Positions 3,169-59,960 of a stretch of DNA of 64,000 bases are shown here, in pieces; the first letter of the stretch is position 1, and every line of letters starts with the position of its first letter. The stretch spans positions 255,883-319,882 of the forward strand of contig VMEP01000001.1 of assembly GCA_007375595.1 (NCBI GenBank). Direction: 5' to 3'. Under the pieces are notes generated by a model. That model did not search any database. It was not told the DNA's origin and saw only the letters and a program-made list of their open reading frames with translations. Source of the DNA: Parcubacteria group bacterium LiPW_30 (GTDB lineage: Bacteria > Patescibacteriota > Minisyncoccia > Phycocordibacterales > VMEP01). The translations under genes were made by a program, and so were the position numbers.

Positions 3169-4011
3169 ATGAAAACCTACAAACCAACATCACCATCAAG
3201 AAGAAGCATGACAGGCGTAGTATATCGCAATGTTATCACCCATACAGAGCCATTAAAAGCTCTTACCAAGGGTCGCAAGCGAGATAGTGGACGCAACTCT
3301 GCTGGACGCATTACCACTCGCCATAAAGGAGGTGGGCACAAAAGACTCTATCGTGATATAGATTTTAAATATAATAAATTTGATATTCCAGCAAAGATTG
3401 CGAGCGTTGAATACGATCCAAACCGCACTGGTTTTATAGGTCTCGCTGTTTATAAAGACGGAGAGAAGCGTTATGTGCTTTTACCTAAATCTGTTGGAGT
3501 AGGTAACTCTTTTATCGTTAGTGAAACTGCATCGATAACCCCAGGAAATCGCATGCCACTCAAACAAGTTCCTGTTGGTACTTTTGTTTACAACGTTGAA
3601 CTAAAACCAAAGGGTGGTTCAAAAATTGCGCGCGGGGCTGGTGTTTATGTGGAAGTTGTTGCAAACAACGACGGTTACACGCACTTAAAAATGCCATCTA
3701 CAGAAGTTCGAAAAGTTTCTGATAAATGTTACGCATGTATCGGGCAGGTTTCAAACGAAGAACACGGACTTGTAAAAATAGGAAAAGCAGGACGTTCTCG
3801 ATGGATGGGTATTCGCCCAACAGTTCGTGGAACAGCTATGAACCCTGTTGATCACCCACACGGTGGAGGTGAAGGACGCCAAGGACGCGGTCTTCGACGT
3901 GCAAAGAGCAAGTGGGGCAAGCCAACAGGCAAGGGCCAAAAGACACGCGCACCTAAAAAATATTCAAACGTCTTTATTGTTTCAAGACGTAAAGTTGGAA
4001 AGAAACGATAA
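3169..4011 (+). CDS. rplB: 50S ribosomal protein L2
   Basis: Hallmark GRNSAGRITTRHKGGGHKRLYR and C-terminal Gly/Arg-rich tail. Confidence 0.95.
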   Translation: MKTYKPTSPSRRSMTGVVYRNVITHTEPLKALTKGRKRDSGRNSAGRITTRHKGGGHKRLYRDIDFKYNKFDIPAKIASVEYDPNRTGFIGLAVYKDGEKRYVLLPKSVGVGNSFIVSETASITPGNRMPLKQVPVGTFVYNVELKPKGGSKIARGAGVYVEVVANNDGYTHLKMPSTEVRKVSDKCYACIGQVSNEEHGLVKIGKAGRSRWMGIRPTVRGTAMNPVDHPHGGGEGRQGRGLRRAKSKWGKPTGKGQKTRAPKKYSNVFIVSRRKVGKKR

Positions 4012-4027
4012 TAATATAGCTATAAAC

Positions 4028-4060
4028 AAAAAATCTCGTCACATGGCGAGATTTTTTATT
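4028..4060 (+). terminator. Terminator directly after rplB
   Basis: aaaaaatctcgtcacatggcgagattttttatt. Confidence 0.5.
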
Positions 4061-4062
4061 AC

Positions 4063-4145
4063 GAGTTTACTTTTATCTTTACGGGTATAGTATTTCTCTT
4101 AGTTTACTTCTTTAATTTTTTGGCGGAGGAATCATGTCAAGAGAA
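4063..4145 (+). repeat. Direct repeat copy 1 (~80 bp leader: promoter-like TATAGTAT, RBS GGAGGAA, ATG-TCA-AGA)
   Basis: Near-identical to 5081..5162; each precedes a different small ORF starting MSR. Confidence 0.8.
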
Positions 4146-4550
4146 TCAGATGGCATCCTTTTTTCAGCAGTGTGCGGACATTGCGGCGAGTGTTGGGATG
4201 ATCATGAAAATCCGTATCAGTATGGTTGGACGGAAGACATGATGAAACAACGTCAGCCTGGCTTTAAAAAGTCGCTTTATGATTGCCCGGGGTTTCAGGT
4301 CAGAAAGATTGATTTGCCAGACATCATACTTGTTTCTGCAAGACGATTGTTTTTTGGAGAACCCCAATTACCTGTTTTTTGGAAATATCCCGGAATCAAG
4401 TCTGCCGCCGAGCACTGCTTGAAACAAAATCAAGCGAAGTGGGATTCGGCCGAAAGGAAACAGCGGTGGTCAATGTATAGTGACTGTGTGGTCCTTATTG
4501 GCGTTAACCCCAAGACAGGAACATCTGTCGTTGTTGATTGTGGTAGCTGA
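4134..4550 (+). CDS. Hypothetical protein, CxxCxxC N-terminus, GC-rich cassette gene
   Basis: ORF with RBS in duplicated leader; ~50% GC against ~38% background. Confidence 0.45.
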   Translation: MSRESDGILFSAVCGHCGECWDDHENPYQYGWTEDMMKQRQPGFKKSLYDCPGFQVRKIDLPDIILVSARRLFFGEPQLPVFWKYPGIKSAAEHCLKQNQAKWDSAERKQRWSMYSDCVVLIGVNPKTGTSVVVDCGS

Positions 4551-4610
4551 TAAGCCAATTATTGTGTACAAGGTCAGATTTCCGGACGAGTAGTTCGTCG
4601 GTGTAAGATA

Positions 4611-4650
4611 ATCGGCGCAGGGTTCTCACCCCGCGCCGATTTTTATTTTA
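4611..4650 (+). terminator. Rho-independent terminator
   Basis: atcggcgc...gcgccgat stem followed by ttttatttt. Confidence 0.6.
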
Positions 4651-4722
4651 CCAAAGGAAACTTACTTGGTCGTTTACAATTTTTTCAAGATTGCGTAGTA
4701 TCACACATAGAGGGAAAGTTCG

Positions 4723-5016
4723 ATGTTTTCTTACTGGGGGATTTCACCAGTGGACGACAAATTTAAACTGTTTCATGAGATTTCTCGGTTTTTACGTACC
4801 GCCCCACAGCCTGCAGTGATTGCGTGGAGAGAAGGGTGGAGCAAAATTACCCTACATCCCGACGGGTTTGAGTCGTGGGATTCGTGTGGGTGTTGTACAA
4901 CTGGATACTCTCCGGGGTGGTATTGCGAAAATCCCAAGGGGTCTTACCGTTGGATCTGTGGTCCCAAAGGAGAGAGCGTCAAAGGAAAAGCCCCAGAAGG
5001 ACTTTGTTGTTTGTGA
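4723..5016 (+). CDS. Hypothetical Cys-rich small protein
   Basis: RBS GAGGGAAAG before ATG; overlapping alternative frame 4820..5032 cannot be excluded. Confidence 0.35.
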   Translation: MFSYWGISPVDDKFKLFHEISRFLRTAPQPAVIAWREGWSKITLHPDGFESWDSCGCCTTGYSPGWYCENPKGSYRWICGPKGESVKGKAPEGLCCL

Positions 5017-5040
5017 AAACCTGGGTGACTAAAATAAAAA

Positions 5041-5074
5041 CCTGCAAAACCATCTCGGTCCTGCAGGTTTTTCT
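5041..5074 (+). terminator. Rho-independent terminator
   Basis: cctgca...tgcagg stem then tttttc. Confidence 0.55.
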
Positions 5075-5080
5075 GTTATG

Positions 5081-5162
5081 GGTTTACTTTTATTCCTGCT
5101 GGTATAGTATTTCTCTTAGTTTACTTCTTTAATTTTTGGCGGAGGAATCATGTCAAGACTGA
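5081..5162 (+). repeat. Direct repeat copy 2 of the cassette leader
   Basis: Matches 4063..4145 with few substitutions. Confidence 0.8.
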
Positions 5163-5398
5163 GAATTACAAGCGCCCGGGTGCTTGCGAAGATTGCTGGT
5201 CCAGAATGTGGAATTCATTGTCAGGTCAGAATCACTGCACCACTCAACAGTGTTTTTCAGGGAATTACTGCACCAAGTCTCTGGTTGGCAGAAGTGAGCA
5301 GACTTTTCCCCGAAATTCCAGAAAACCATCTTTCCATGGCGCCTGACGATAGTTTCGCTGTGCTCGCGGACCGTATCGCCGAGTACTTGAATCGCTGA
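5150..5398 (+). CDS. Hypothetical small protein (second MSR... cassette gene)
   Basis: Same leader/RBS as 4134 ORF, terminator downstream. Confidence 0.4.
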   Translation: MSRLRITSARVLAKIAGPECGIHCQVRITAPLNSVFQGITAPSLWLAEVSRLFPEIPENHLSMAPDDSFAVLADRIAEYLNR

Positions 5399-5425
5399 CG
5401 AATAACTTCGCCAGAAGAATGAAAG

Positions 5426-5456
5426 AAGCCCTGCGCATGCGCAGGGCTTTGTTTGT
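5426..5456 (+). terminator. Rho-independent terminator
   Basis: agccctgcgcatgcgcagggct followed by ttgtttg. Confidence 0.6.
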
Positions 5457-5741
5457 AGGTGGCCCCGCCGATCGGGGCAGACCTCCTGGTATCTCGTCTG
5501 ATCTAGCTCTCCTTGCTTGGCCGTGCAAGTATGATGCCTGTCGTTTTGACGAGCGGACAACGCCCACCGGAGTGGCGTATTCCAGGGTGAGGGACATGAT
5601 TACAACGACTTGCCTCCTTTACTCATATCCTAAGTCCGATTAGGGAGCAGCATACATCGAGGGGAATATGTGGGCGGGGCGCCCGACGACCCCAAGATTA
5701 GTCACCAAGTCCTTTTTCGATATTATCTGGTTTAGTCTGGT

Positions 5742-5769
5742 TTGACAATGGTTTTTCTTCTGATAATAT
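5742..5769 (+). promoter_or_regulatory. sigma70-like promoter re-starting the r-protein operon (TTGACA - 16 nt - TG-n-TAATAT)
   Basis: Consensus hexamers read directly, 60 nt upstream of rpsS. Confidence 0.5.
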
Positions 5770-5831
5770 GCACGACAAGCTCACTTGGGCTGTTTTTGTT
5801 TGTTTTTCATTAATTATACTAATTACTACAA

Positions 5832-6176
5832 ATGACCAGGTCACTAAAAAAAGGACCATACGTTGATCCACGCCTTCTAAAAAAGATAGAAGGTAAAAAA
5901 CCACTTGAAGCTGGGGTTATTAAGACTTGGTCACGACCATGCCAAATTTCTCCGGAGATGGTTGGTTTTACTTTTGGTGTACATAATGGAAAGAGCCATA
6001 TTGAAGTTTTGGTTACAGAAGATATGGTTGGACATCGCCTAGGTGAATTTTCTCCAACAAAGAAATTCGTAAGACACGGAGGTAAAATGCAGAAAGAGCT
6101 TGAACAGAAGAAGAAACAAGCGGAAATTTCTGCCGCACAGTCTGCTAAGGCAACCGCCGGTGATAAAAAGAAATAA
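5832..6176 (+). CDS. rpsS: 30S ribosomal protein S19 with Lys/Ala-rich C-terminal extension
   Basis: SLKKGPYVD...TWSR...VHNGK core. Confidence 0.9.
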
Positions 6177-9595: not shown

Positions 9596-10048
9596 ATGGC
9601 AAAGAAGGTGGTGTCAGAAGGAGTGTTGGCGGCAAGGGCAAATGAGGCCGCCAGGAGAAAGTGCAGAAAGAGCCTGATCGCGTGGAGCGCTCACCCGATT
9701 TCGAAGGAGTCATTCCCCGATGACTTCGCGGATGGGTTTGATTTCGCCGACCGGGCTGGTTCAGGGGCTTTTGAAGCTTTCGCCGGTCGGCTTGAGACGA
9801 ATCTCGCCTCAGCGCCGTGTGCTCAGTGTTCAAAGGATTGTCCCGGTTCACACGGGGAATGTCTCCTCGATGTTGACCCTGGGGCACTTCAGGACCAGGA
9901 AGATCTCGCAGTCGAGGAGGCCGAAATGAGCCCCTTCGTGTTGGCTGCGAGGCGTGCTGGTTTCGACCATGATACCGCCTTGCGCATGGAGGCCGAAATG
10001 GAAATTGAGATGAGTCGTCTTTCTGGGGAAATGGACAGCATCCATTAG
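9596..10048 (+). CDS. Hypothetical acidic protein, GC-rich (~58%) cassette gene inserted between rplE and rpsZ
   Basis: RBS AAGAGG then ATG; own terminator downstream; compositional outlier. Confidence 0.4.
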   Translation: MAKKVVSEGVLAARANEAARRKCRKSLIAWSAHPISKESFPDDFADGFDFADRAGSGAFEAFAGRLETNLASAPCAQCSKDCPGSHGECLLDVDPGALQDQEDLAVEEAEMSPFVLAARRAGFDHDTALRMEAEMEIEMSRLSGEMDSIH

Positions 10049-10148: not shown

Positions 10149-10176
10149 TTGACATTAAAGGGCGTTTTGGTAGTAT
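10149..10176 (+). promoter_or_regulatory. sigma70-like promoter (TTGACA - 16 nt - TAGTAT) reading toward rpsZ
   Basis: Hexamers read directly. Confidence 0.45.
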
Positions 10177-18940: not shown

Positions 18941-19033
18941 GGGCGAACAGTCTGGGTACAGACTGTTTTAGCCCTAAAACATTATTACCAAAATGTTCGG
19001 GCGAACAAATTTTAAATAAAATTTGTTTTAGCC
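18941..19033 (+). repeat. Two tandem copies of the TTCGGGCGA-hairpin-TTTTAGCC motif
   Basis: gggcgaaCAGTCTGggtaCAGACTGttttagcc then ctaaaa..ttcgggcgaaCAAATTTtaaataAAATTTGttttagcc. Confidence 0.6.
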
Positions 19034-23329: not shown

Positions 23330-23700
23330 GTTTTTTAATGTTCGCCCTTAAAATGCGCGTATAATTTTTTGCTAAAAATTTACTATACTCGCCTCGCCAG
23401 GCTCCGTAATGCATTTTAAGGGCGAACATAGAGATATTAAATACAAAAAACTTTGCTGAATTTTCGCTCTGCTCGATTCGTCAATCTGCGCAAGGTATTT
23501 TAGGGGTGTATGCAGGAAATAAAATACTTAGAAATGCACGTATAATTTTCTGCTGAAAATTTACTATACTCGGCTCGTCAGCCTCCGTCTCTCAATTGCT
23601 TCACTTATCGCAATTGAGCATCGCACTGCGCCCGCCTGCGCGTACACGCGGGCAGGCAATGTTTTTAAATACAAAAAATTGGATTTTTGAAGAAGGAGGA
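23330..23700 (-). mobile_element. Cluster of two partial MITE-family copies, minus orientation
   Basis: 23341-23430 bounded by ttcgcccttaaaatgc / gcattttaagggcgaa inverted repeats; 23536-23690 is the reverse complement of modules seen at 54961-55105 (ctcaattgcgataagtgaagcaattgagagacggaggctgacgagccgag). Confidence 0.55.
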
Positions 23701-23756: not shown

Positions 23757-24827
23757 TTACTTATCGGCGGGCGTGGTGGCTAGCCTCTTCAGGTTTTGTT
23801 CGGCTTCTTCCGTTTGCCGTTCTGCTTCCCGAATTGCCGCGAGGCGGGCGTATTCAGCCTTCCTTATTTCATACAGCTTAAGGAATTCCGCCGCCTTTGA
23901 GTTTACGAGACAGGCTTCTTCGACGGTAGTCGCTAGGCGAGTTTTACCGACAGGGGATTTGGTTGTGCGGAGTTCTGTTCGCAGAGAGATTTCTTTGAGC
24001 TTTGCCAAACATGGTTCATCAAGCTCTTCGAAACCCCAGAAACTGCTTCGCATACCATAAATATCCCACAGCAGGTCAATCTTGCCGATGGAGGACAGCA
24101 CTTCAAGCATCCAGAGTTTTGCCGAGTTGATGTTTTTGCGCATCTCGGCATTTTGCTTTGCTTTCTCTTCTGGACGGATATGCCACGACTTGATTTCTTC
24201 TCCCTTCCACTTGAAAACAAACGCTGCGAGTCGCAGTAGGAAATTGATGGCCTGTTGTTCGTTGTGGTTGGAGGCCTCTAGTCCAGATAGGTTGCGAACA
24301 GCCCCCCCTTCGACCGCGAAAAAGTTCATGAGGATTGGAAGGATTCGCCCTGAAACAAAGTCAGTGCCCCATGGGTCTCTGCTCCTGTGTTGCACGGAGA
24401 GGGAGTTCTCAATCTCGACCTTGAAGAAGTTCTGGGCGAGTACGTCAAACGCTTTGCGTGCCAACTTCTGGCGAAACCATGCTGGGTTTCCTGGTTGGCG
24501 ATTTCCGTACCTGTCGTAGCCGATGACATATCCTTTGCCTTCATCTGACTCAAGATGCCACTGGGAATAACCACGTTCCCAACCATCAGCAATGGCGAAG
24601 TAGGTTTCCAGGCGATCAGCATGGTCGTACTCTTGTTCGCCATGACTGAAACGCTCAAACCCCACATTGAAACCCTCGTGGAGCAGTCCGGCCAGCTGGT
24701 GCGTGGTGGTGGACTCTTGCCAGCAGGTTCGCCACTCGTTCCAATTACGGGGCGGGCGAATTTCGCGCACCATGAGGGGGTGTGGTAGAGCACTTACGGC
24801 ACTTACGAGATCTTCAATTTGCGACAT
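23757..24827 (-). CDS. Hypothetical 357-aa protein, GC-rich (~52%), coiled-coil C-terminus
   Basis: Start moved to internal Met (MSQIEDL) because the longer ORF overlaps tRNA-Ala; RBS AGAGAGG upstream. Confidence 0.5.
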   Translation of the reverse strand: MSQIEDLVSAVSALPHPLMVREIRPPRNWNEWRTCWQESTTTHQLAGLLHEGFNVGFERFSHGEQEYDHADRLETYFAIADGWERGYSQWHLESDEGKGYVIGYDRYGNRQPGNPAWFRQKLARKAFDVLAQNFFKVEIENSLSVQHRSRDPWGTDFVSGRILPILMNFFAVEGGAVRNLSGLEASNHNEQQAINFLLRLAAFVFKWKGEEIKSWHIRPEEKAKQNAEMRKNINSAKLWMLEVLSSIGKIDLLWDIYGMRSSFWGFEELDEPCLAKLKEISLRTELRTTKSPVGKTRLATTVEEACLVNSKAAEFLKLYEIRKAEYARLAAIREAERQTEEAEQNLKRLATTPADK

Positions 24828-24929
24828 TTTGTTGCCTCTCTTTCTTTCTTGGGTTATGCCCCGTACTGTGACGGGACGAGGTACTGCTATGCCAAATATA
24901 CCTCGGGGCTTGATTAAGTCAAACTGTTG

Positions 24930-25005
24930 TGGTGGACCATACCGGATTCGAACCGGTCGCCTCATCCATGCCATGGATGCGCTCTACCAAATGAGCTAAT
25001 GGCCC
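24930..25005 (-). tRNA. tRNA-Ala (anticodon GGC), CCA encoded
   Basis: Cloverleaf folded by hand: acceptor GGGCCAT/ATGGTCC, D-arm GCTC..GAGC, anticodon loop ATGGCAT, T-loop TTCGAAT. Confidence 0.8.
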
Positions 25006-25064
25006 CTAAAATATTTTACAGAAAAATATTCGGGCGACCATTTTCTTTAGAAAATGGTTTAGCC
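25006..25064 (+). promoter_or_regulatory. CTAAAA-hairpin-TTCGGGCGA-hairpin-TTTTAGCC motif, antisense orientation abutting the tRNA-Ala 5' end
   Basis: Read on minus strand the motif ends TTTTAG immediately before mature tRNA G1. Confidence 0.5.
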
Positions 25065-25097
25065 TTTAAATTTTGAAACACTATACCAAAACAAACA

Positions 25098-25145: not shown

Positions 25146-25305
25146 ACTATTTCTTTGAAGGAAGGATTTTGTACATTCCAGTTCCACACACTGTACATGT
25201 ACCTTTTGCTGCAGGGCGTCCAGGCTTTATTTCAGTCTGCTGAACATCCTTCATCTCACGCTTTTCCTTACACTTCACACAATACCCAATTATTTTTTCA
25301 TCCAT
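25146..25305 (-). pseudogene. Small double-CxxC zinc-ribbon protein gene (52 aa expected) disrupted by a single extra G (frameshift)
   Basis: Minus-strand translation MDEKIIGYCVKCKEKA* then +1 frame ...REMKDVQQTEIKPGRPAAKGTCTVCGTGMYKILPSKK*; intact reading is restored by deleting one g in aaggaaaagGcgtgag. Confidence 0.35.
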
Positions 25306-25451: not shown

Positions 25452-26861
25452 ATGCACATTTCAACTCGCGGTTTGGCTCCGGCGGTTAATTTTGCCTACA
25501 CGGTGCTCAAGGGAATTGCGCCAGATGGTGGTTTATACGTTCCGGAGAAGATTTTCCAGTTTGCCGAAGATGACATTCGTCGGCTTGCTGGACTTTCCTA
25601 TACGGAGGTTGCCAAAATTGTCATGGATCGGTTTGCTCCGGACATGGACAAAGTCGCGCTTCACGGCGCGATAGACAAGGCTTATACCCCCGACGTTTTT
25701 GCAAACGTTACCGAAAAGGATGACAATCCCATCGACATCGTCCCTGTGCGCCATCTTGGTCAAGATTTGTATCTTGCTCGGCTGAGCAATGGGCCAACTC
25801 TCGCATTCAAGGATTTGGCGTTGCAGTTGCTTGGCCACCTCTTCGAAATCGTTCTCGACGGGAAACCACTCAACGTGCTTGGGGCGACGTCGGGCGACAC
25901 GGGGTCGGCGGCTATTCATGCCATGCTCGGAAGAAAGGATATACGCGTTTTCATGCTCTCTCCGCATGGCAGGATGAGTCAATTTCAATCGGCTCAGATT
26001 TTGGGCGTCAATGACCCGATGATTCACAACATTTCGGTCAACGGTTCGTTCGACGATTGCCAAGACGTGGTGAAGGCGGTTAGCGGGGACGCTAGCTTCA
26101 GGGAGGAGTACAACATCGGCGCCGTAAACTCAATCAATTGGGCAAGGGTTGCCGCGCAGGTGGTCTACTACTTCTTTGTTTGCTCCCGCATCCGTGGTCG
26201 TGATGGTGGCCAAATTGACGTCGCCGTCCCGACAGGGAATTACGGCAACATCTATGCGGCCTGGGTTGCGAAAATGATGGGGTTGCCGATTCGTCGGCTG
26301 ATTCTCGCAACCAACGAAAACGATGTTCTGCATGAGTTTTTCACAACGGGCATTTACAGGCCCAGACTGAAGACCATCGAAACGTCGAGTCCGTCGATGG
26401 ACATCACCAAGGCGTCGAATTTCGAGCGTTACGTTTTTGACGTTTTTGGCGGCAACTCAACCAAGGTTGCAAGGCTGTGGGCGGCACTCGACAAGACGGG
26501 GCAGTTTGATTTGTCGCACAGGATGGCGAAGATTCGCGAGACAGGTATTACTTCCTGCGCAGTTCAGCAGGAACAAGTCGCCGAGACCATCAACTACGCC
26601 TTCGTGAAGTACGGCATCGTCATCGACCCCCACACGGCGGTAGCAATGCACTCGGCAATTAATACGCAGCAGTCCGGCGTGCCGATGGTCGTGATGGAGA
26701 CAGCTCAGCCCTGCAAGTTTGACCTTGCTATAAAGCAGGCGCTTGGTTTCACTGTATCGCCTCCTTCGAGCATGAAGGACCTTATGTCCACAAAGCAGTT
26801 CTTTACGCAGATGGATCCAAACGTCGAAGCGACCAAGGAATTCATTCGCGCGCGGGCATGA
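25452..26861 (+). CDS. thrC: Threonine synthase
   Basis: PLP-enzyme motifs GPTLAFKD and ATSGDTGSAA; GC ~55-60%, well above background. Confidence 0.85.
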   Translation: MHISTRGLAPAVNFAYTVLKGIAPDGGLYVPEKIFQFAEDDIRRLAGLSYTEVAKIVMDRFAPDMDKVALHGAIDKAYTPDVFANVTEKDDNPIDIVPVRHLGQDLYLARLSNGPTLAFKDLALQLLGHLFEIVLDGKPLNVLGATSGDTGSAAIHAMLGRKDIRVFMLSPHGRMSQFQSAQILGVNDPMIHNISVNGSFDDCQDVVKAVSGDASFREEYNIGAVNSINWARVAAQVVYYFFVCSRIRGRDGGQIDVAVPTGNYGNIYAAWVAKMMGLPIRRLILATNENDVLHEFFTTGIYRPRLKTIETSSPSMDITKASNFERYVFDVFGGNSTKVARLWAALDKTGQFDLSHRMAKIRETGITSCAVQQEQVAETINYAFVKYGIVIDPHTAVAMHSAINTQQSGVPMVVMETAQPCKFDLAIKQALGFTVSPPSSMKDLMSTKQFFTQMDPNVEATKEFIRARA

Positions 26862-26883
26862 GCGAATTCATTTTCGCTTTTCA

Positions 26884-26985
26884 AAACCTAGTCTTCGGGC
26901 TAGGTTTTTTGTTTGGTGAGGCGTTGATTTCATAACTAAAATTTTTGAATTAATAAAACCCGCCGGAGCGGGTTTTTTGTGACTT
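26884..26985. terminator. Two successive intrinsic terminator hairpins
   Basis: aaaacctagtcttcgggctaggttttttg and aaaacccgccggagcgggttttttg. Confidence 0.65.
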
Positions 26986-26989
26986 CTTT

Positions 26990-27493
26990 TTACCATGGCG
27001 TTTTATTTCCAGGATATTCTGCGATTGCAAACTCGAGGCCATCTATCCCGTAATCAGCGAGACGGACACACCCACCCATGAAGCAAAACTGCTTGGCTTG
27101 GAGAATGTCGAGAGCCACGGTTGTTTCCATGCCCTGGAAAAGATTCCAGAGGTAGTGGGATTTCACCCTTTCGTCCACAACAGGTTCACCTCGTCGCTGG
27201 ATGTTTACAAGCCAGAAGATAGTGAAGACGGTCGGGGCGAGGAGGTCGCTCTTGTACTTCTTGTAGAGGCGGTATTCGGTACGGTTTGCGACGATACCGG
27301 CCAGAAGATACTTGATTACGGCAAGGAGCGGGTTCCGGTGATGTTTCTCAAGGTTACCCCGTACTTGTTTCTTCTGAATTGATTCGAAGAGCTTGATGAA
27401 CGGCCTTAGTGGGCGAAATCGCGCAATCTTGATGGCGTACTGCCCAATCAAAATTACACAGCGGGTAGAACCACACGCGAAATCAAGGTACAT
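26990..27493 (-). CDS. Hypothetical 167-aa protein, possibly small kinase-like fold
   Basis: AIKIAR (beta-3 Lys-like) and VRLADYG (DFG-like) motifs; GC-rich; weak inference. Confidence 0.3.
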   Translation of the reverse strand: MYLDFACGSTRCVILIGQYAIKIARFRPLRPFIKLFESIQKKQVRGNLEKHHRNPLLAVIKYLLAGIVANRTEYRLYKKYKSDLLAPTVFTIFWLVNIQRRGEPVVDERVKSHYLWNLFQGMETTVALDILQAKQFCFMGGCVRLADYGIDGLEFAIAEYPGNKTPW

Positions 27494-27621: not shown

Positions 27622-27683
27622 GGCTAAAACATCTCTACAAAAGAGATGTTCGCCCGAATATTTTGTAATTGCAAAATATTTTA
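27622..27683 (-). promoter_or_regulatory. Fifth copy of the TTCGGGCGA hairpin motif, sense orientation ahead of gene 27705
   Basis: ggctaaaaCATCTCTacaaaAGAGATGttcgcccgaa tattttgtaattgcaaaatat tttag | gagggg. Confidence 0.5.
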
Positions 27684-29087: not shown

Positions 29088-29696
29088 ATGACAAGTGATT
29101 TAAATACCATTGTGGGACTTTACAGGGAAAAAGTTTTTCAAATTTTAAAAGTGTCATTTATCCTAGAGTACTTAGAGGAATATAATTATGAATTTTCTGT
29201 AAAATACAGAGAACAGAATGCATCATTAATAACAGTGATTGAATCTATTGATTTTTGTCACACGATGCTTTTATCACGTATTTTTGACGAGGATAACAAA
29301 TCTTTCTCAGTTAAAAATATACTTAAAAAACTAAATAAGAATTATAACAATGGTGTAATTTCTGAGATTACGGAGTTAGAGCTTAAGGGGACTTTAAAAA
29401 ATCTTAGTATGTGGAGGGGAAATGTTTTTGCTCATGATAATTTTAATGTTTCAATGTCTTCAGAGCATTACGATATGTACCCTTCTCATACGATAGATTT
29501 TGAAACATTACATCAATATCTTATCGATACTCTTATAACATACGAATTTGATTTGATTAATAATGATAAATCAGTTGAATATTTAACTAATGTTTTTAAT
29601 GAGGAGTTAGAAGCTAAGAAAAAACAATGGGAAGGTGATATTAATTTAGTATTAAAGTTTATTGGTAATTATAGAGTTCAAAATCTATTAAAGTAA
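29088..29696 (+). CDS. Hypothetical protein in AT-rich island; possible HEPN-like Rx5H motif (WRGNVFAHD)
   Basis: ~28% GC; motif-level inference only. Confidence 0.35.
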   Translation: MTSDLNTIVGLYREKVFQILKVSFILEYLEEYNYEFSVKYREQNASLITVIESIDFCHTMLLSRIFDEDNKSFSVKNILKKLNKNYNNGVISEITELELKGTLKNLSMWRGNVFAHDNFNVSMSSEHYDMYPSHTIDFETLHQYLIDTLITYEFDLINNDKSVEYLTNVFNEELEAKKKQWEGDINLVLKFIGNYRVQNLLK

Positions 29697-29830
29697 TTTA
29701 TTGCTCGCTAAATTTTGTGTTGTTTGAACGTAAGGGTTTTCATCAGTTTAGTTAAATTATGGGTTTCGGTTGCATAAACACTCTAGAACTGTAAGTATTA
29801 ACGTGTTAGGATATTTGTGATTTTATAACC

Positions 29831-30241
29831 ATGTCAAAGCATAAAGGAATATGGGAGTATGTAAAAATTAGTTCTTCGGAATACTACTATTCTGAAATAC
29901 AACCAGAAGGAATAAATTATTTTCTTCGAGCTGCAACAGCAAAAATTCTATGGGTGACTTTTTGTTACATACTGGTTTTAAAGATGATCCCGCTAACTAA
30001 CTTTATCCTTTTGAACGCCTCGGTTCTTCTTGCGGGAAGCGCGTTTATTTTCTTTTGGGAACAGGTTGTAAAAGATCATGCTCCAAAATGGTGTGACGAT
30101 TTTGTAACTGGAAAGATATTTTTTGAAGTTGACATATCTTCATTAAACAAGTATATTTTCTACCTCTTTATAGCAAACCTACTTATGTTCCTTTTCCCTG
30201 GAACTAAATTAGGATTAACAACATCTTATGACAAAAAATAG
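29831..30241 (+). CDS. Hypothetical membrane protein
   Basis: Three predicted TM segments; AT-rich. Confidence 0.4.
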   Translation: MSKHKGIWEYVKISSSEYYYSEIQPEGINYFLRAATAKILWVTFCYILVLKMIPLTNFILLNASVLLAGSAFIFFWEQVVKDHAPKWCDDFVTGKIFFEVDISSLNKYIFYLFIANLLMFLFPGTKLGLTTSYDKK

Positions 30242-30872
30242 TCTTACAACTAGTATTATATTGTTTATTTTGGCAGTATCATTGCTCTTCTTTGCAATAA
30301 AGAATAGTAGCAAAGAGGATAGTAAAACTAATATATCCATCGAGACCATAAAGGAAGAAGTTATTCCGTATAAAGCAAAAGATTCGATGAGCAAAGTTTT
30401 AGTTGTGAAAGATTTTAAGAATTCCTCAATTTCCCACAGCCCGACAGATACTTTTAAAAAAACACTAGAGGTCAACGGGACCATCGTTGGTGGTTATATA
30501 TACATTAAGGCCGATGTTGACAACAGGGCCCTTACTAGTTTTGATGATATATATGTAAAACTCATAGAGTCTTCCCATGGGTTGTATAAAGAATATGGGG
30601 GACATTTAATACAAAGCCAAAGTCTTGACACCCCTAAAAATGATAAACAAACCGAATTTTTATACGAACTTTCGTCTATAAAATATAAAAAAAGTTTTAC
30701 CGATTCTGACAAAGAGGTACTTTCTGGTAACTGGCTCGCTATTTTAAATGATTCTACAACTAAGAAAATTTTGGGGTTCTCCTCAACTTCTCGAAATGGG
30801 GATATGCAAGAGATGTATATTTATTATAAATGTTTAGATAACACCGATTGTTCGATTAGTATTTCCCAGTGA
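30228..30872 (+). CDS. Hypothetical N-terminally anchored extracytoplasmic protein
   Basis: Single N-terminal TM then Ser/Lys-rich domain. Confidence 0.4.
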   Translation: MTKNSLTTSIILFILAVSLLFFAIKNSSKEDSKTNISIETIKEEVIPYKAKDSMSKVLVVKDFKNSSISHSPTDTFKKTLEVNGTIVGGYIYIKADVDNRALTSFDDIYVKLIESSHGLYKEYGGHLIQSQSLDTPKNDKQTEFLYELSSIKYKKSFTDSDKEVLSGNWLAILNDSTTKKILGFSSTSRNGDMQEMYIYYKCLDNTDCSISISQ

Positions 30873-30916
30873 TTTAAGGTTATTTTTTTATTTAAAATAT
30901 GTAAATAGAACCAAAT

Positions 30917-31228
30917 GTGGTTAGTTACTTTCTGGTTATTACGTCTGGATTTGCTGTTGTGTGGGGTTTTCGGGCTTTTAGTGATAGTGGTGAAAAGAAG
31001 ATATCTGAGTTCGAATATGCCGGGTTCAGTACTTTTTGGGGAAGTTTAGTTTTCATTTTATTTATCTGGATATTAAAAAACAAATCAGATATTTTGCTTG
31101 GGGCACTTTCTTATCCTTTTACGGCTACGCCCACATTGTTTTTACTCGGAGGTATTACTGGAGCTTCCACTGGGTGGATTTTTAAACATACGCATGAGTT
31201 GCGGACTTGGTTGCAAAGTAAACTATGA
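30917..31228 (+). CDS. Hypothetical small membrane protein
   Basis: Hydrophobic segments; weak. Confidence 0.3.
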   Translation: MVSYFLVITSGFAVVWGFRAFSDSGEKKISEFEYAGFSTFWGSLVFILFIWILKNKSDILLGALSYPFTATPTLFLLGGITGASTGWIFKHTHELRTWLQSKL

Positions 31229-31364
31229 CAAGGGAGATTGACTATAAATAACTTTTTGCCGTCGCAAAAAGTTTTGAGGATTAGTTCGATGTGGGAATTG
31301 GTCACAAATCTTTTGTTGCTACAAAAGTTCGCGACCCCGCCTCGCGCCGTCGCGCTCCGGCTTT

Positions 31365-31447
31365 CAATTCCCCACACAAGACATGCAGATGTCTTGCTCC
31401 ATCTCCACAAACAAAAATGGCTCACCGAAAGGTGAGCTCATTTTTGA
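31365..31447. repeat. Inverted partial copy of the tmRNA 3' end next to a bidirectional terminator hairpin
   Basis: ttcaattcccc...tccatctccacaa is the reverse complement of tmRNA 3' segments tgtggagatgg / ggggaattgaa; terminator ggctcaccgaaaggtgagcc. Confidence 0.5.
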
Positions 31448-31849: not shown

Positions 31850-31910
31850 CTAAAACATTTTTGTTGCAAAAATGTTCGGGCGACCATTTTCTTTAGAAAA
31901 TGGTTTAGCC
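31850..31910 (+). promoter_or_regulatory. CTAAAA-hairpin-TTCGGGCGA-hairpin-TTTTAGCC motif abutting the tmRNA 5' end (antisense as written)
   Basis: 45-nt core identical to the copy at 25019-25064. Confidence 0.5.
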
Positions 31911-35882: not shown

Positions 35883-35960
35883 GTCCGCCCTTAGCTCAGT
35901 TGGTTAGAGCACAGAGCTTATACCTCTGCGGTCCCTGGTTCGAATCCAGGAGGGCGGACA
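35883..35960 (+). tRNA. tRNA with anticodon TAT (UAU; reads AUA, Ile); acceptor helix can extend to 9 bp
   Basis: Cloverleaf folded by hand: D-arm TAGCTCAGTTGGTTAGAGC, anticodon stem CAGAG/CTCTG, loop CTTATAC, T-loop TTCGAAT, acceptor CCGCCCT/AGGGCGG. Confidence 0.6.
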
Positions 35961-38874: not shown

Positions 38875-39327
38875 TTATTCCAGCCCGACCAAACTCAGGG
38901 TCATCCCCAGAATCGGCAGATGGTTTGGAAAAAAGTTCTGGAGCCCTCGGATTTGGTCAAGGGAGAACGACTTCACAATTTCTCCCTCGTCGCCAGTTGC
39001 CGCGAGATCTGCAAAGTCCCCAAGTCCGACGTAGAGATACTGGGTGTGGGTCCTCTTGTCGAGTTTCCCGAGCCTGGATACTCGCACCGTCACACCAGTC
39101 TCTTCTTTGACCTCACGTACGGCGGCATTGTCTGCTGCCAAATGGTCGTCGTATGGATGTTCTGGATTGACGTCCTCCTTGTCGATTTTTCCGCCAGGGA
39201 ACTTCCAGTAATGTGGCTCAGGTTTCGTTTTGTCGAGGACTAAGGCAAATCGCCCCGTATTCTCGTCAATTACCGCAACAACAGACGCGCCAATACCGGC
39301 CGTCTTATCAGATTTTTGATTAGCCAA
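38875..39327 (-). CDS. NUDIX hydrolase
   Basis: Nudix box GGKIDKED....AAVREVKEETGV; GC-rich. Confidence 0.7.
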   Translation of the reverse strand: MANQKSDKTAGIGASVVAVIDENTGRFALVLDKTKPEPHYWKFPGGKIDKEDVNPEHPYDDHLAADNAAVREVKEETGVTVRVSRLGKLDKRTHTQYLYVGLGDFADLAATGDEGEIVKSFSLDQIRGLQNFFPNHLPILGMTLSLVGLE

Positions 39328-39534
39328 TTTAACCCACCTCCTAGCGGGGGAAAATCAAGTTAAGTTAAAGGGTCTTGCTACTTTTTATGATAGCACGTTT
39401 GTATAAAAAAGTCAATGCGGGGTGGTAATGTGTACACATTACCCATAGAGCTTGACTACTTAATTCTGCCATGTTACCGTACAAAAAGATTCATTGTCCC
39501 GCTCCGAAAGGAGCTTTCCTTAAAGGAGGAACCC

Positions 39535-39894
39535 ATGCTACTGTCCAGCGAGTTAGCCTTGCAATTGAAATCCGTTCGGAAACCGATCGTGTTCTCTCTT
39601 TTCGGACCGGAAGGCGCCGATGACGAGCGGGAACAAATCATCTTCAAGAATGCTCTGGTCGTCGAAGTAATTAACGCCTTGCGACTCTGTGGCTTCTGTC
39701 AAATCTATGCCGCCAAACTCCTGATTGGAACCTCCAATGAGGCAAGAGTGCGGAGAGAAACCTTCGAGCTTCTTGAGCTTTTCCAAAGGCAGATCATGCT
39801 TTTGAGGATCGGCGGAGAGACCCTCAAGTTCGAGACACTCGAATTTGGCGAACCGGGCTCAGTGTCGATTCGGCTGGATGTACTTTTGATTTGA
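39535..39894 (+). CDS. Hypothetical protein (GC-rich)
   Basis: RBS AAAGGAGGAA before internal Met; terminator downstream. Confidence 0.35.
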   Translation: MLLSSELALQLKSVRKPIVFSLFGPEGADDEREQIIFKNALVVEVINALRLCGFCQIYAAKLLIGTSNEARVRRETFELLELFQRQIMLLRIGGETLKFETLEFGEPGSVSIRLDVLLI

Positions 39895-39912
39895 CGCGAA
39901 CTGTCAAAACAG

Positions 39913-39945
39913 GCCGCCCCAATTGGGGCGGCTAACTTTTTTAAT
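39913..39945 (+). terminator. Rho-independent terminator
   Basis: caggccgccccaattggggcggctaacttttttaa. Confidence 0.65.
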
Positions 39946-39959
39946 TATTTTCTTCGGCC

Positions 39960-40165
39960 AAATATCTTACTTGCTGTTGCTCGTAAAAATTTAAAACGGA
40001 GACGGTGGTTCGGCCACGAATATTTTACTCGCCGTCGCTCGTAAAATTTCTTGACCACGGCTCGCGACCTGTTCTGCTGAACAGGTGCCCGCTCCGCCTT
40101 TCGAATCCCACCGTCTTTACGAAAAATATAGTCACAAAATGCTTCACATTTTGTTCCTTGTTTTA
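39960..40165. repeat. Degenerate repeats derived from the tRNA-Ser 3' end
   Basis: aacggagacggtgg at 40002 and 40165; ttcgaatcccaccgtct at 40097 is an inverted copy of the T-arm/acceptor; direct repeats ttact[ct]gc[ct]gt[ct]gctcgtaaaa at 39969 and 40025. Confidence 0.5.
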
Positions 40166-40252
40166 CGGAGACGGTGGGATTCGAACCCACGGTCCCGATT
40201 AAGGGACGCCTCGTTAGCAGTGAGGTGCTTTCGACCACTCAGCCACGTCTCC
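40166..40252 (-). tRNA. tRNA-Ser (anticodon GCT) with long variable arm
   Basis: GGAGACGTGGCTGAGTGGTCGAAAGC...CTGCTAA loop...long extra arm...GGTTCGAATCC. Confidence 0.85.
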
Positions 40253-40340
40253 ATATATTATATAAACATTGCACGCTTTCTCTTTTTAATGCACCGCCGA
40301 TATGAGAAAACTTAACACATTTTTATTAGTTGAGCCAATG

Positions 40341-54505: not shown

Positions 54506-54841
54506 ATGAAGCCACGTGAAAAAAGCGCACTAAAGAGTGTCGTCGTCTTGTTCTTCTGTGCTGTGATGATGTCGGTTACGGCGATGTTTTTTCCCGAGTA
54601 CTTTGTCGAGATGTTTTTTATTGTTTTTCTCGCCACTGTATTTGTAATCAACCGACACCTCTGTGCCTCGTGCCCGAAATGCGGAAGCTGGGACACGTCT
54701 CGGAAGAGCAGTATGTCATTTGATTCACATCTTGGCTCCTTTCATTCGGTTGAATGGCAGATCTGTTCATGTGGATATGAATGGGGGAGTCATCACGAAA
54801 TCCTTTCAGCGAGAGAACATTCCCGTAGAAGCCCTATGTAA
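54506..54841 (+). CDS. Hypothetical 2-TM protein with C-terminal CxxC...CxC zinc-ribbon-like segment
   Basis: ORF with hydrophobic N-terminal half; GC higher than neighbours. Confidence 0.35.
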   Translation: MKPREKSALKSVVVLFFCAVMMSVTAMFFPEYFVEMFFIVFLATVFVINRHLCASCPKCGSWDTSRKSSMSFDSHLGSFHSVEWQICSCGYEWGSHHEILSAREHSRRSPM

Positions 54842-54940: not shown

Positions 54941-55127
54941 CCAAAATACCCCCAAAAAACATTGCGCAGTGCGACTGGCTCAATTGCGATAAGTGAAGCA
55001 ATTGAGAGACGGAGGCTGACGAGCCGAGTCGGGGTAGCGCAAATTTCTAGCAAGAAATTATGCGTGACCGAGCATAGTAAATTTTTAGCAAAAAATTATA
55101 CGCGTTTTTTGGGGGTATTTTAAAAAA
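54941..55127. mobile_element. MITE-like element, long copy; perfect 18-bp terminal inverted repeats
   Basis: ccaaaatacccccaaaaaac ... gttttttgggggtattttaa; internal modules shared with 1116, 23536-23690 (reverse complement), 59842-59937, 57740-57800. Confidence 0.65.
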
Positions 55128-57719: not shown

Positions 57720-57858
57720 GGGCTTATGGAGTAAGACCGGGCCGGAGCGTGGCGACGCGAGGCGGGGTCGCAGAATTTTTCAGCAGAAAAATATCTGTGA
57801 CGAAGTGGTACTCCTTGTGGTTTAACCACAAAGTTTGTTAAGGTAGTTGTTGAAAGAA
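57720..57858. mobile_element. MITE-family fragment inserted at the tRNA-Met 5' end, flanked by a direct repeat of the tRNA start
   Basis: Direct repeat aattata(t)agcgggatg at 57703 and 57856; internal ccggagcgtggcgacgcgaggcggggtcgcagaatttttcagcagaaaaatat matches family modules. Confidence 0.45.
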
Positions 57859-57863
57859 TTATA

Positions 57864-59795: not shown

Positions 59796-59960
59796 CTGGG
59801 TTGTAACCAGTAAATAATTTTACTGGTGTACGGGATTGAAAGCCGGAGGCAGACGTGCCGAGGCGGGGTAGCGCAACCGGAGGCAGACGTGCCGAGGCGG
59901 GGTAGCGCAAAAATTTAGCAAAATTTTATGCGTGACCAATCCCGGACAACGGCTCTGGGT
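59779..59960. mobile_element. 137-bp MITE-family insert bounded by a 23-bp direct repeat of the tRNA-Thr 3' end
   Basis: aatcccggacaacggctctgggt at 59779-59801 and 59938-59960; insert has tandem 34-bp repeat ccggaggcagacgtgccgaggcggggtagcgcaa x2 plus aaatttagcaaaattttatgcgtgacc. Confidence 0.6.

Follow-up and report, generated by a model that had tools for sequence, protein, structure and literature searches.

Lateral acquisition as the probable source of GC-rich accessory genes, including an old threonine synthase gene, in the AT-rich genome of Parcubacteria group bacterium LiPW_30

Introduction

Why does a bacterium of the Candidate Phyla Radiation (CPR), whose core genes are AT-rich, carry a markedly GC-rich gene for threonine synthase? 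The question arises in Parcubacteria group bacterium LiPW_30, where thrC (positions 25452-26861, plus strand) lies in a 64-kb window, the whole stretch of DNA analysed here, together with several other short GC-rich segments. An initial annotation of the window had taken thrC and its neighbours for horizontal acquisitions in a biosynthetically reduced genome, and had raised mis-assembly as a possibility. We compared the window (W) with contigs and loci of its relatives (numbered L001, L002 and so on). The GC-rich segments are, in our judgement, probably real coding, laterally acquired accessory genes set in an AT-rich core, and would fall into two age classes, with thrC old and the small open reading frames (ORFs) younger.

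Composition and coding character of the GC-rich segments

The GC content of the window is 39.9%. As a baseline for the host we used 64 curated core genes inside the window, among them those for ribosomal proteins, secY, adk, map, ndk, an RNase J-like gene, infC and smpB, as well as ftsH, recG, type IV pilus genes, ligA, gatCA, ftsEX and others. Their GC content is 0.388±0.034 and their GC content at third codon positions (GC3) is 0.312±0.044, with a highest GC3 of 0.454. Against this baseline thrC reaches a GC content of 0.531 and a GC3 of 0.638 (z=7.4), and eight further ORFs are GC-rich: orf356, orf167, orf150, the NUDIX gene, orf159, orf111, orf138 and orf82. The small ORFs of this set include the annotated hypothetical proteins LiPW30_262, 263, 273, 290, 293 and 307. 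GC3 z-scores across the set range from 2.7 to 7.4, and its tetranucleotide usage correlates with that of the core at r = 0.37, against 0.65±0.06 (minimum 0.48) in 200 length-matched samples of core sequence. In 200-nt windows the GC content steps sharply at gene boundaries. Sliding-window GC, GC3 and tetranucleotide checks thus bear out the positions and overall pattern of the GC-rich segments given in the initial annotation, although its figure of about 55-60% GC for thrC was slightly too high (53.1%, with a maximum of 0.56 in 200-nt windows).

Wherever a relative exists, the GC-rich ORFs are genes under purifying selection. The ratio of nonsynonymous to synonymous substitution rates (dN/dS) is 0.10-0.15 for thrC, 0.11 for orf356 and 0.18 for orf167, and the corresponding pN/pS ratio is 0.08 for orf82 and 0.23 for orf150; most of the core genes compared have a dN/dS of 0.02-0.06. 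Because of these values, and because the ORFs display the codon-position pattern typical of coding sequence (GC1 above GC2, with high GC3), the segments are read as coding rather than as chance open frames.

Structured non-coding RNA was considered as another reading of the GC-rich DNA and rejected: a scan of the whole window against Rfam at the gathering score returned tRNAs and the transfer-messenger RNA (tmRNA) only, folding was unexceptional, and the ORFs show coding-type constraint. A permissive Rfam scan (E≤1) of positions 4000-5850 gave nothing credible, and the non-coding DNA of 56% GC at 5399-5720 (folding z-scores -1.1 and -2.3) is not unusually structured.

Two further features had been ascribed to the segments, namely terminators of their own and a location next to tRNA genes. 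Terminator-like hairpins do follow thrC (26883-26908, plus strand, an 11-bp stem and then a T-run), orf356 (23745-23724), the NUDIX gene (38856-38821), orf159 (39912-39933) and orf82 (5426-5449), and for these five genes the claim is plausible; such sites are, however, no more frequent in the window than in shuffled sequence. A neighbouring tRNA gene was found at two of the six sites (tRNA-Ala at 24930-25005 and tRNA-Ser at 40165-40253) but not at the remaining ones.

A threonine synthase gene apart from its pathway

The 469-aa product of thrC is, to judge from its domains and motifs, a genuine class II (long-form) threonine synthase. It has the long-form architecture of Pfam domains Thr_synth_N, PALP and THR4_C (the last at 26.0 bits, marginally below the 27-bit cutoff), scores 237.9 bits against the TIGR00260 equivalog for EC 4.2.3.1 (cutoff 167.1), and finds its best match in the Protein Data Bank (PDB) in threonine synthase 3v7n (E=3.6e-128), aligning over its full length to this structure and to 4f4f. 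The stretches PTLAFKD, GATSGDTGSAA and TSSPSMDI are kept between the product and 3v7n. Residues K120, G148-D149-T150-G151 and G262-N263-x-G265-N266 are invariant in all nine members of the clade described below and align to 3v7n; we take K120 to be the catalytic lysine that binds pyridoxal phosphate (PLP), by analogy with K107 of E. coli ThrC. Because these catalytic motifs are intact, the protein most likely still turns O-phospho-L-homoserine into threonine.

The genes expected to supply this substrate, hom and thrB, were found neither in the window nor in the flanks of CPR-type relatives. The window holds no amino-acid biosynthesis gene besides thrC, and to that extent the description of the genome as biosynthetically reduced is accurate. 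An AA_kinase gene adjoins thrC in L005 and L012 and was examined as a pathway partner. It was rejected, the L012 copy being a UMP kinase; the L005 copy, at 239 aa, has the size expected for the same enzyme. We found nothing relevant on thrC or threonine synthase in Parcubacteria, Patescibacteria or the Candidate Phyla Radiation in the searchable literature, and no mention of LiPW_30.

Origin and age of thrC

A sequence search with the thrC product yielded, besides the 100%-identical protein of LiPW_30 itself, metagenomic relatives at 92-59% identity and then a plateau of Betaproteobacteria at about 50-53%. Among the matches listed in a scan of species-representative genomes, Betaproteobacteria reached at most 54% identity, while Alphaproteobacteria, Propionibacteriaceae and one metagenome-assembled genome (MAG) of Patescibacteria stood at about 40-45%. 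A neighbour-joining tree with bootstrap support and a midpoint root was built from 42 sequences. In it, nine ThrC proteins from CPR or CPR-like contigs form one clade (bootstrap 100), whose sister group consists of Betaproteobacteria and Propionibacteriaceae (bootstrap 100 for the union). The clade includes the ThrC proteins of L005 and L012, at 59-61% identity, encoded on contigs of 43-45% GC by genes whose composition is near background. The thrC gene of the Patescibacteria MAG SMAG_U12103 (L045:8207-9583) falls outside it, with Micavibrio and other alphaproteobacteria. In this tree, then, thrC appears patchy and polyphyletic within Patescibacteria, as would be expected of acquired genes. 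We regard the gene as foreign because its nearest outside relatives are Betaproteobacteria and because of this polyphyly.

The thrC genes of termite-gut Propionibacteriaceae (L041 and L048) group with Burkholderiales. These genes and that of SMAG_U12103 look like further independent transfers of thrC.

The contigs carrying thrC that are closer to LiPW_30 form two groups: group A (W, L001, L100, L009 and L010) and group B (L002, L011, L121, L131 and L150). thrC is present in every relative recovered, and the gene order tRNA-Ala(GGC), DUF5679, thrC is common to W and group B. The tRNA-Ala(GGC) gene (24930-25005, minus strand; called by ARAGORN and Rfam) lies between orf356 and the DUF5679-thrC unit, and an orthologous copy occupies the same place in group B. 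The DUF5679 gene (25147-25305, minus strand), which has core composition and is named for the Pfam label of its relatives, encodes a 52-aa zinc-ribbon protein and always adjoins thrC in both groups; the protein is 100% identical in L001, and its cluster at 90% identity has 52 members across Paceibacterota/Minisyncoccia. L001, L009 and L010 keep DUF5679 and thrC and have no tRNA-Ala gene.

Between the two groups, core flanks share 85-94% protein identity and ThrC 71-76%. At 4-fold sites of conserved residues, W and L002 are identical at a proportion of 0.46 in thrC (0.27 expected if independent) and of 0.34-0.58 in flanking core genes (0.28-0.38 expected), so that a residual shared signal of about 25% remains in thrC and flanks alike. 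A coarse thrC tree also agrees with the relationships of the flanks. Since thrC is syntenic in two sublineages and its 4-fold-site identity is the same as that of the flanks, the gain of the gene would be old: thrC has apparently been diverging alongside its neighbours since groups A and B split, and its acquisition does not look recent. The earlier suggestion of horizontal acquisition therefore holds as regards foreign origin, which the ThrC phylogeny and polyphyly support, and fails as regards a recent, unameliorated arrival, against which synteny, divergence and selection all speak.

As to the tRNA gene itself, W 24933-25071, comprising tRNA-Ala(GGC) and its upstream motif, is missing from the closest relatives (L001, L009 and L010), while the orthologous gene of the more distant group B bears a compensatory stem change; the tRNA gene is thus itself strain-variable. 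At or near thrC, other contigs contain unrelated GC-rich small ORFs with a GC3 of 0.51-0.60 (L001:12129-12551, L002:11539-12063 and L011:5763-6284), so GC-rich cargo seems to have been picked up more than once downstream of thrC.

Slow loss of GC at thrC

In nine contigs of groups A and B, with backgrounds of about 40% GC, thrC has a GC3 of 0.59-0.65. As a control, the thrC genes of about 85 other organisms, retrieved with the same DNA motif scan, match the GC content of their own contigs. Amelioration was assessed from synonymous third-position changes polarised by parsimony on three-taxon stars. Changes from GC to AT outnumber the reverse in thrC of group A (61 against 40; binomial p=0.046 against a fraction of 0.5) and of group B (51 against 29; p=0.018), while the flanks show 72 against 100 in group A and 204 against 226 in group B. 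The observed GC-to-AT fractions of 0.604 and 0.637 in groups A and B nonetheless fall short of the 0.719 and 0.758 expected from flank rates (binomial p=0.014 and p=0.018); the individual p-values are modest, and Fisher's method combines those for the two groups to about 0.002. These spectra imply an equilibrium GC3 of 0.48-0.50 in thrC, compared with 0.34-0.37 in the flanks. thrC still loses GC on balance; what is mildly surprising, on modest statistics, is that it does so more slowly than the core-gene spectrum predicts and towards a higher apparent equilibrium. We regard amelioration as under way but slow, because there is a net excess of GC-to-AT changes that stays below the expectation from flank rates. 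If each lineage has lost about half of its synonymous 'memory', thrC would have had to start at the A/B split from a GC3 of about 0.75 by its own spectrum and of 0.8-0.9 by that of the flanks. Such a value plausibly fits a GC-rich donor; a far longer stay in AT-rich CPR genomes is difficult to square with it.

The slow loss invites an alternative in which GC-biased gene conversion or selection at synonymous sites actively keeps thrC, and perhaps the other islands too, GC-rich. The difference in equilibrium GC3 between thrC and flanks recurs in two independent groups, and nine lineages have kept a GC3 of 0.59-0.65 although the two groups share only about a quarter of their 4-fold-site history. 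Recombination around thrC is indicated by the mosaic synonymous divergence between W and L010: 0 in infC, 0.12 in orf356, 0.46 in thrC and 0.065 in ftsH. Comparable mosaicism is nevertheless seen in AT-rich core genes (ndk and the PHP gene, W against L001), and because these are equally mosaic, the pattern appears to reflect ordinary recombination in the population. Moreover, thrC loses GC on balance (112 changes from GC to AT against 69 in the opposite direction), the polarisation by three-taxon parsimony gives modest p-values, the homologues of orf356 and orf167 elsewhere track the GC content of their genomes, and thrC of L005 and L012 is near background. Active maintenance thus strikes us as unlikely, though it deserves to be kept in mind.

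A conserved antisense gene, or dual coding inside thrC, was also considered as a cause of the retained GC and rejected, the open antisense stretches not being conserved in position.

Rather less credible is an arrival of thrC and its neighbours from a GC-rich donor so recent that there has been too little time to ameliorate. The strongly atypical composition, the net GC-to-AT synonymous flux of thrC and the polymorphism of several small ORFs among strains at least 97% identical would all suit it. Yet thrC is present, syntenic and of the same GC3 range in every contig of groups A and B, it has diverged from one group to the other as far at synonymous sites as the flanks have, and the nearest ThrC outside the CPR-context clade is only about 50-53% identical. 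We therefore retain an old acquisition for thrC, and reserve younger ages for the small ORFs.

Strain-variable genes beside thrC: orf356 and orf167

orf356 (23757-24827, minus strand; GC 0.519, GC3 0.566) is inserted between infC and tRNA-Ala and varies between strains. L002 lacks it, the insertion boundary relative to that contig lying at about W 23537, and at the same locus L001 has a GC-rich paralogue of 35% identity. Only 22 members of the family could be detected among 5.8 billion proteins, and those few that have names belong to Patescibacteria/Paceibacterota. The predicted structure is all-helical, with no informative match. Homologues in L013 (Paceibacterota, 54% GC; GC3 0.66) and in the AT-rich L015 (GC3 0.35) match their backgrounds, whereas that in the AT-rich Paceibacterota contig L098, in another gene context, has an anomalous GC3 of 0.657 against about 0.30. 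This pattern reads as the signature of repeated transfer from GC-richer Patescibacteria, and in this one traceable accessory family the donors appear to be other, GC-richer Patescibacteria and not distant phyla.

Members of the orf356 family lie 0.1-0.6 kb from a tRNA-Ala gene in the window (23757-25005, anticodon GGC), in L098 (988-2408, CGC) and in L013 (9401-11071, CGC), though not in L015. The family may have a tRNA-Ala-linked insertion preference, or the association may be coincidence.

orf167 (26990-27493, minus strand; GC 0.500, GC3 0.589) is convergent with thrC and encodes a minimal protein-kinase-like protein, with a kinase-like fold and conserved Lys, Glu and Asp. Clustered at 50% identity, its family of uncharacterised kinase-fold proteins of about 165 aa yields 355 clusters. 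Residues G, R, K, E and D are invariant in the family, which has no Pfam match and no sequence match in the PDB. orf167 is absent next to thrC in L009, L010 and all group B contigs, where unrelated GC-rich ORFs or a P-type ATPase gene are found instead, and a homologue in the AT-rich L099 has the composition of its background and no thrC neighbour.

The adjacency of a kinase-like gene to an orphan thrC prompts the idea of a salvage module, with orf167 phosphorylating scavenged homoserine for ThrC to convert into threonine. In its favour, W, L001 and L100 each have the two GC-rich genes side by side and convergent, the fold with its conserved Lys, Glu and Asp is kinase-like, and no known thrB is nearby. 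The separation of the two genes in L009, L010 and group B, and the occurrence of the L099 homologue away from thrC, make this far-fetched in our view.

A phage origin of orf356 and orf167 was rejected: neither has relatives in IMG/VR, and the sole, weak PHROG match is that of orf167 to phrog_4301, of unknown function.

Cassettes in the ribosomal-protein operon and the remaining islets

The GC-rich segment at 4134-5700 resolves into two tandem cassettes between rplB and rpsS, containing orf138 and orf82 (GC3 0.43 and 0.45) and non-coding DNA of 0.46-0.56 GC. Cassette 1 (4052-5068, plus strand) consists of a 105-nt leader, orf138 (4134-4550) and about 0.5 kb of non-coding DNA. Cassette 2 (5069-5831, plus strand) consists of a leader, orf82 (5150-5398), a terminator, 0.3 kb of non-coding DNA of 56% GC and a promoter-like site (TTGACA-16-TAATAT at 5742-5769) ahead of rpsS. 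Both open with the same 105-nt leader, composed of a promoter-like sequence, GGAGG and ATG-TCA-AGA; the copies at 4052-4142 and 5069-5158 are 87-94% identical through the ribosome-binding site and the first three codons. In the 97%-identical L017, W 4143-5068 (cassette 1) is missing and cassette 2 is present. orf138 is a singleton cluster, and cassette 1 is specific to the LiPW_30 strain.

Further along the operon, the GC-rich ORFan orf150 (9596-10048, plus strand; GC 0.567, GC3 0.596) lies between rplE and rpsN, with a promoter-like site (10149-10176) after the insertion and ahead of rpsN. It is conserved in L017 and has no family match in profile searches. Insertions that split the S10-spc operon are unusual. 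The cassettes do not amount to an integron-type array: no integrase was found, a dedicated search with an attC model not having been made, and those between rplB and rpsS have promoter-like leaders of their own.

The remaining islets are smaller. The NUDIX hydrolase gene (38875-39327, minus strand; PF00293, E=3.5e-13; GC 0.519, GC3 0.570) is divergent from orf159 (39415-39894, plus strand; GC 0.487, GC3 0.575), an ORFan and singleton cluster upstream of tRNA-Ser; the terminator-like hairpin that follows orf159 is bidirectional. orf111 (54506-54841, plus strand; GC 0.458, GC3 0.500, z=4.2), a small membrane or Cys-rich ORF between ligA and gatC, is the weakest member of the GC-rich set, and its exact sequence does not occur in the protein collection searched.

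Presence/absence variation among close relatives is seen for orf138, orf167 and orf356. It is not seen for thrC, orf150 and orf82, the last two being present in every relative seen. The view that the neighbours of thrC are horizontal acquisitions finds support in the first three, which vary between near-identical strains, and in homologues elsewhere that match the GC content of their own genomes.

That the GC-rich pieces belong to another organism and were spliced into an AT-rich contig during assembly or binning, as the abrupt change of GC at gene boundaries might suggest, has a negligible chance of being true, given that the islands are single genes within conserved operons with intact flanks and that identical GC-rich/AT-rich junctions, flanked on either side by core genes, are seen in no fewer than eight independent assemblies made from different samples and with different pipelines: L001 (Joint Genome Institute), L009 and L010 (Hainich groundwater, European Nucleotide Archive), L002, L011 and L017 (Logan), and L100, L121, L131 and L150 (metagenome_contigs collection). 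On the evidence of these recurring junctions, the mis-assembly that had been raised may be taken as excluded for practical purposes.

Proposed history and points against it

The history that we favour would run as follows. A class II ThrC lineage, sister to the betaproteobacterial ThrC, would have entered Patescibacteria once and then been passed down under purifying selection in two or more sublineages, its position (tRNA-Ala, DUF5679, thrC) staying fixed. The simplest reconciliation with the composition data would combine this single entry with later CPR-to-CPR spread, the ancestor of groups A and B having received the gene from a GC-richer lineage. orf356, orf167, orf150, orf138, orf82, the NUDIX gene, orf159 and orf111 would be younger, strain-variable cargo, originating, where the source can be traced, in other, GC-richer Patescibacteria. 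Insertion may have proceeded by homology at conserved promoter or leader repeats and at tRNA-proximal intergenic sites; we infer homologous recombination because cassette boundaries coincide with such repeats and with a tRNA 3' end. The DNA could have been taken up by type IV pilus/competence machinery before recombining, and a full gene cluster of this type is located at about 41-52 kb of the window.

Several points weigh against this history. If thrC has resided in AT-rich CPR genomes since before the split of L005 and L012, whose CPR affiliation is presumed, its amelioration should be complete, and the model could then be saved only by a later transfer between CPR members out of a GC-rich lineage (ancestral GC3 of at least about 0.75 at the A/B split) or by a force that slows the drift towards AT. 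A GC-rich donor with this thrC clade did not emerge: among the matches listed from species-representative genomes none exceeded 54% identity, and a DNA scan of metagenome contigs with a clade motif recovered only further members with AT-rich backgrounds. Neither the direction of transfer nor the distinction between "sister to" and "nested in" Betaproteobacteria is secure in a neighbour-joining tree of 42 sequences with a midpoint root. The mechanism, for its part, is deduced: no integrase or transposase domains occur in the window ORFs searched, and no target-site duplications or flanking att sites were found, the cassette boundaries showing promoter or leader repeats only. The ages of orf138, orf159, orf111 and the NUDIX gene rest on no relatives' loci, and asd, like hom and thrB, is absent within the window and the relatives' flanks, which was the scope of the check.

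Repeats and other observations in the window

A dispersed modular repeat, made up of GC-rich hairpin modules and an AT-rich near-palindrome (GTATAGTAAATTTTTAGCAAAAAATTATAC), occurs at 1116-1213, 23345-23417, 23532-23619, 31298-31380, 54941-55127, 57734-57804 and 59823-59937; six copies were aligned. Its positions are upstream of rplC, infC, gatC, tRNA-Met and tRNA-Thr and downstream of tmRNA. The two copies upstream of infC (23345-23417 and 23532-23619, minus strand) comprise repeat families D8, I1, I4 and I7, and the second of them falls inside the orf356 insertion. A stretch of 52 nt is 100% identical between 23568-23619 and 54978-55029, each about 137 nt beyond the stop of a GC-rich ORF (orf356 and orf111). 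The repeat has no Rfam match and could be a shared promoter/operator or a substrate for recombination.

A second motif of 43 nt (AAAAATATTCGGGCGACCATTTTCTTTAGAAAATGG...) stands directly upstream of tRNA-Ala and tmRNA with 98% identity (25022-25064 and 31868-31910). It is also placed at 18989-19031, and an inverted partial copy (27639-27664) lies ahead of the gene at 27669. Probably the motif is a promoter element that these genes share.

Beside tmRNA, positions 29088-31353 form a variable, very AT-rich islet (about 28% GC) of unannotated ORFs, with a weak HEPN/AbiU2-like ORF at 29088-29696; L001 has about 0.66 kb of different sequence in place of W 29337-31353. The islet, at a classical tmRNA hotspot, represents a second compositional class of accessory DNA and is possibly related to defence. 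Among the tRNA genes, a tRNA-Ile with a UAU anticodon (35885-35959), also found in L001, offers an uncommon way to read AUA, and tRNA(CAU) occurs twice, at 57863 and 57994.

Significance and comparison with known systems

The islets of LiPW_30 offer a locus-resolved example of how ultra-small symbiotic bacteria may supplement their metabolism and accessory repertoire through gene transfer. An orphan thrC long under selection, with the rest of the pathway not seen in the window or flanks, suggests that the cells can obtain O-phosphohomoserine or homoserine, perhaps supplied by a host or by the community, or that they have an unrecognised kinase. Short ORFan cassettes with their own promoter-like leaders would be insertable even within a ribosomal-protein operon. 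The slow loss of GC, if real, bears on the dating of transfers by base composition in such genomes; and were a maintained equilibrium at recombination-prone accessory loci to prove true, it would amount to a gene-scale 'isochore' effect in a 0.7-Mb genome.

In its three-domain architecture and in its PLP-lysine and phosphate-loop motifs the thrC product resembles the betaproteobacterial class II threonine synthases (e.g. PDB 3v7n), to which it is about 50% identical in full-length alignment. The genes are set differently: betaproteobacterial thrC (L007, the nearest relative of that group) belongs to an aminotransferase-hom-thrC operon and has the GC content of its genome, whereas that of LiPW_30 is an orphan by tRNA-Ala and DUF5679 and exceeds its own flanks by 13-15 points of GC. 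The orf167 protein shares an N-lobe-like beta-sheet, an invariant Lys, a helix Glu and a DxG Asp with Rio, Bud32, the archaeal RNA kinase Ark1 and APH, and its size (about 165 aa) is close to that of Ark1 (173 aa).

With tRNA-associated genomic islands undergoing Lawrence-Ochman amelioration, the LiPW_30 islets have in common atypical GC, GC3 and tetranucleotide usage, strain variability, the proximity of some of them to tRNA or tmRNA genes and, for thrC, a net drift towards host composition. Unlike such islands, they consist of single genes, show no integrase, transposase or flanking direct repeats, and in some cases sit inside the S10-spc operon. Foreign DNA is more often AT-richer than its host; here, unlike in the usual islands, the islets are GC-richer, and thrC ameliorates more slowly than expected from flank rates.

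Horizontal transfer into Patescibacteria, and between them, has been documented before, and the case of LiPW_30 overturns no current view. A study of groundwater MAGs found that Patescibacteria exchange genes mainly with one another, that the genes exchanged are mostly uncharacterised and that amino-acid biosynthesis genes are few among them; the word 'threonine' does not occur in it (PMC12455944). Our observations share with that study the type of habitat, several relatives coming from groundwater (e.g. Hainich H52), and the same pattern of transfer from Patescibacteria to Patescibacteria; compared with it, the LiPW_30 case is resolved to individual loci, dated relative to lineage splits and tested for amelioration.

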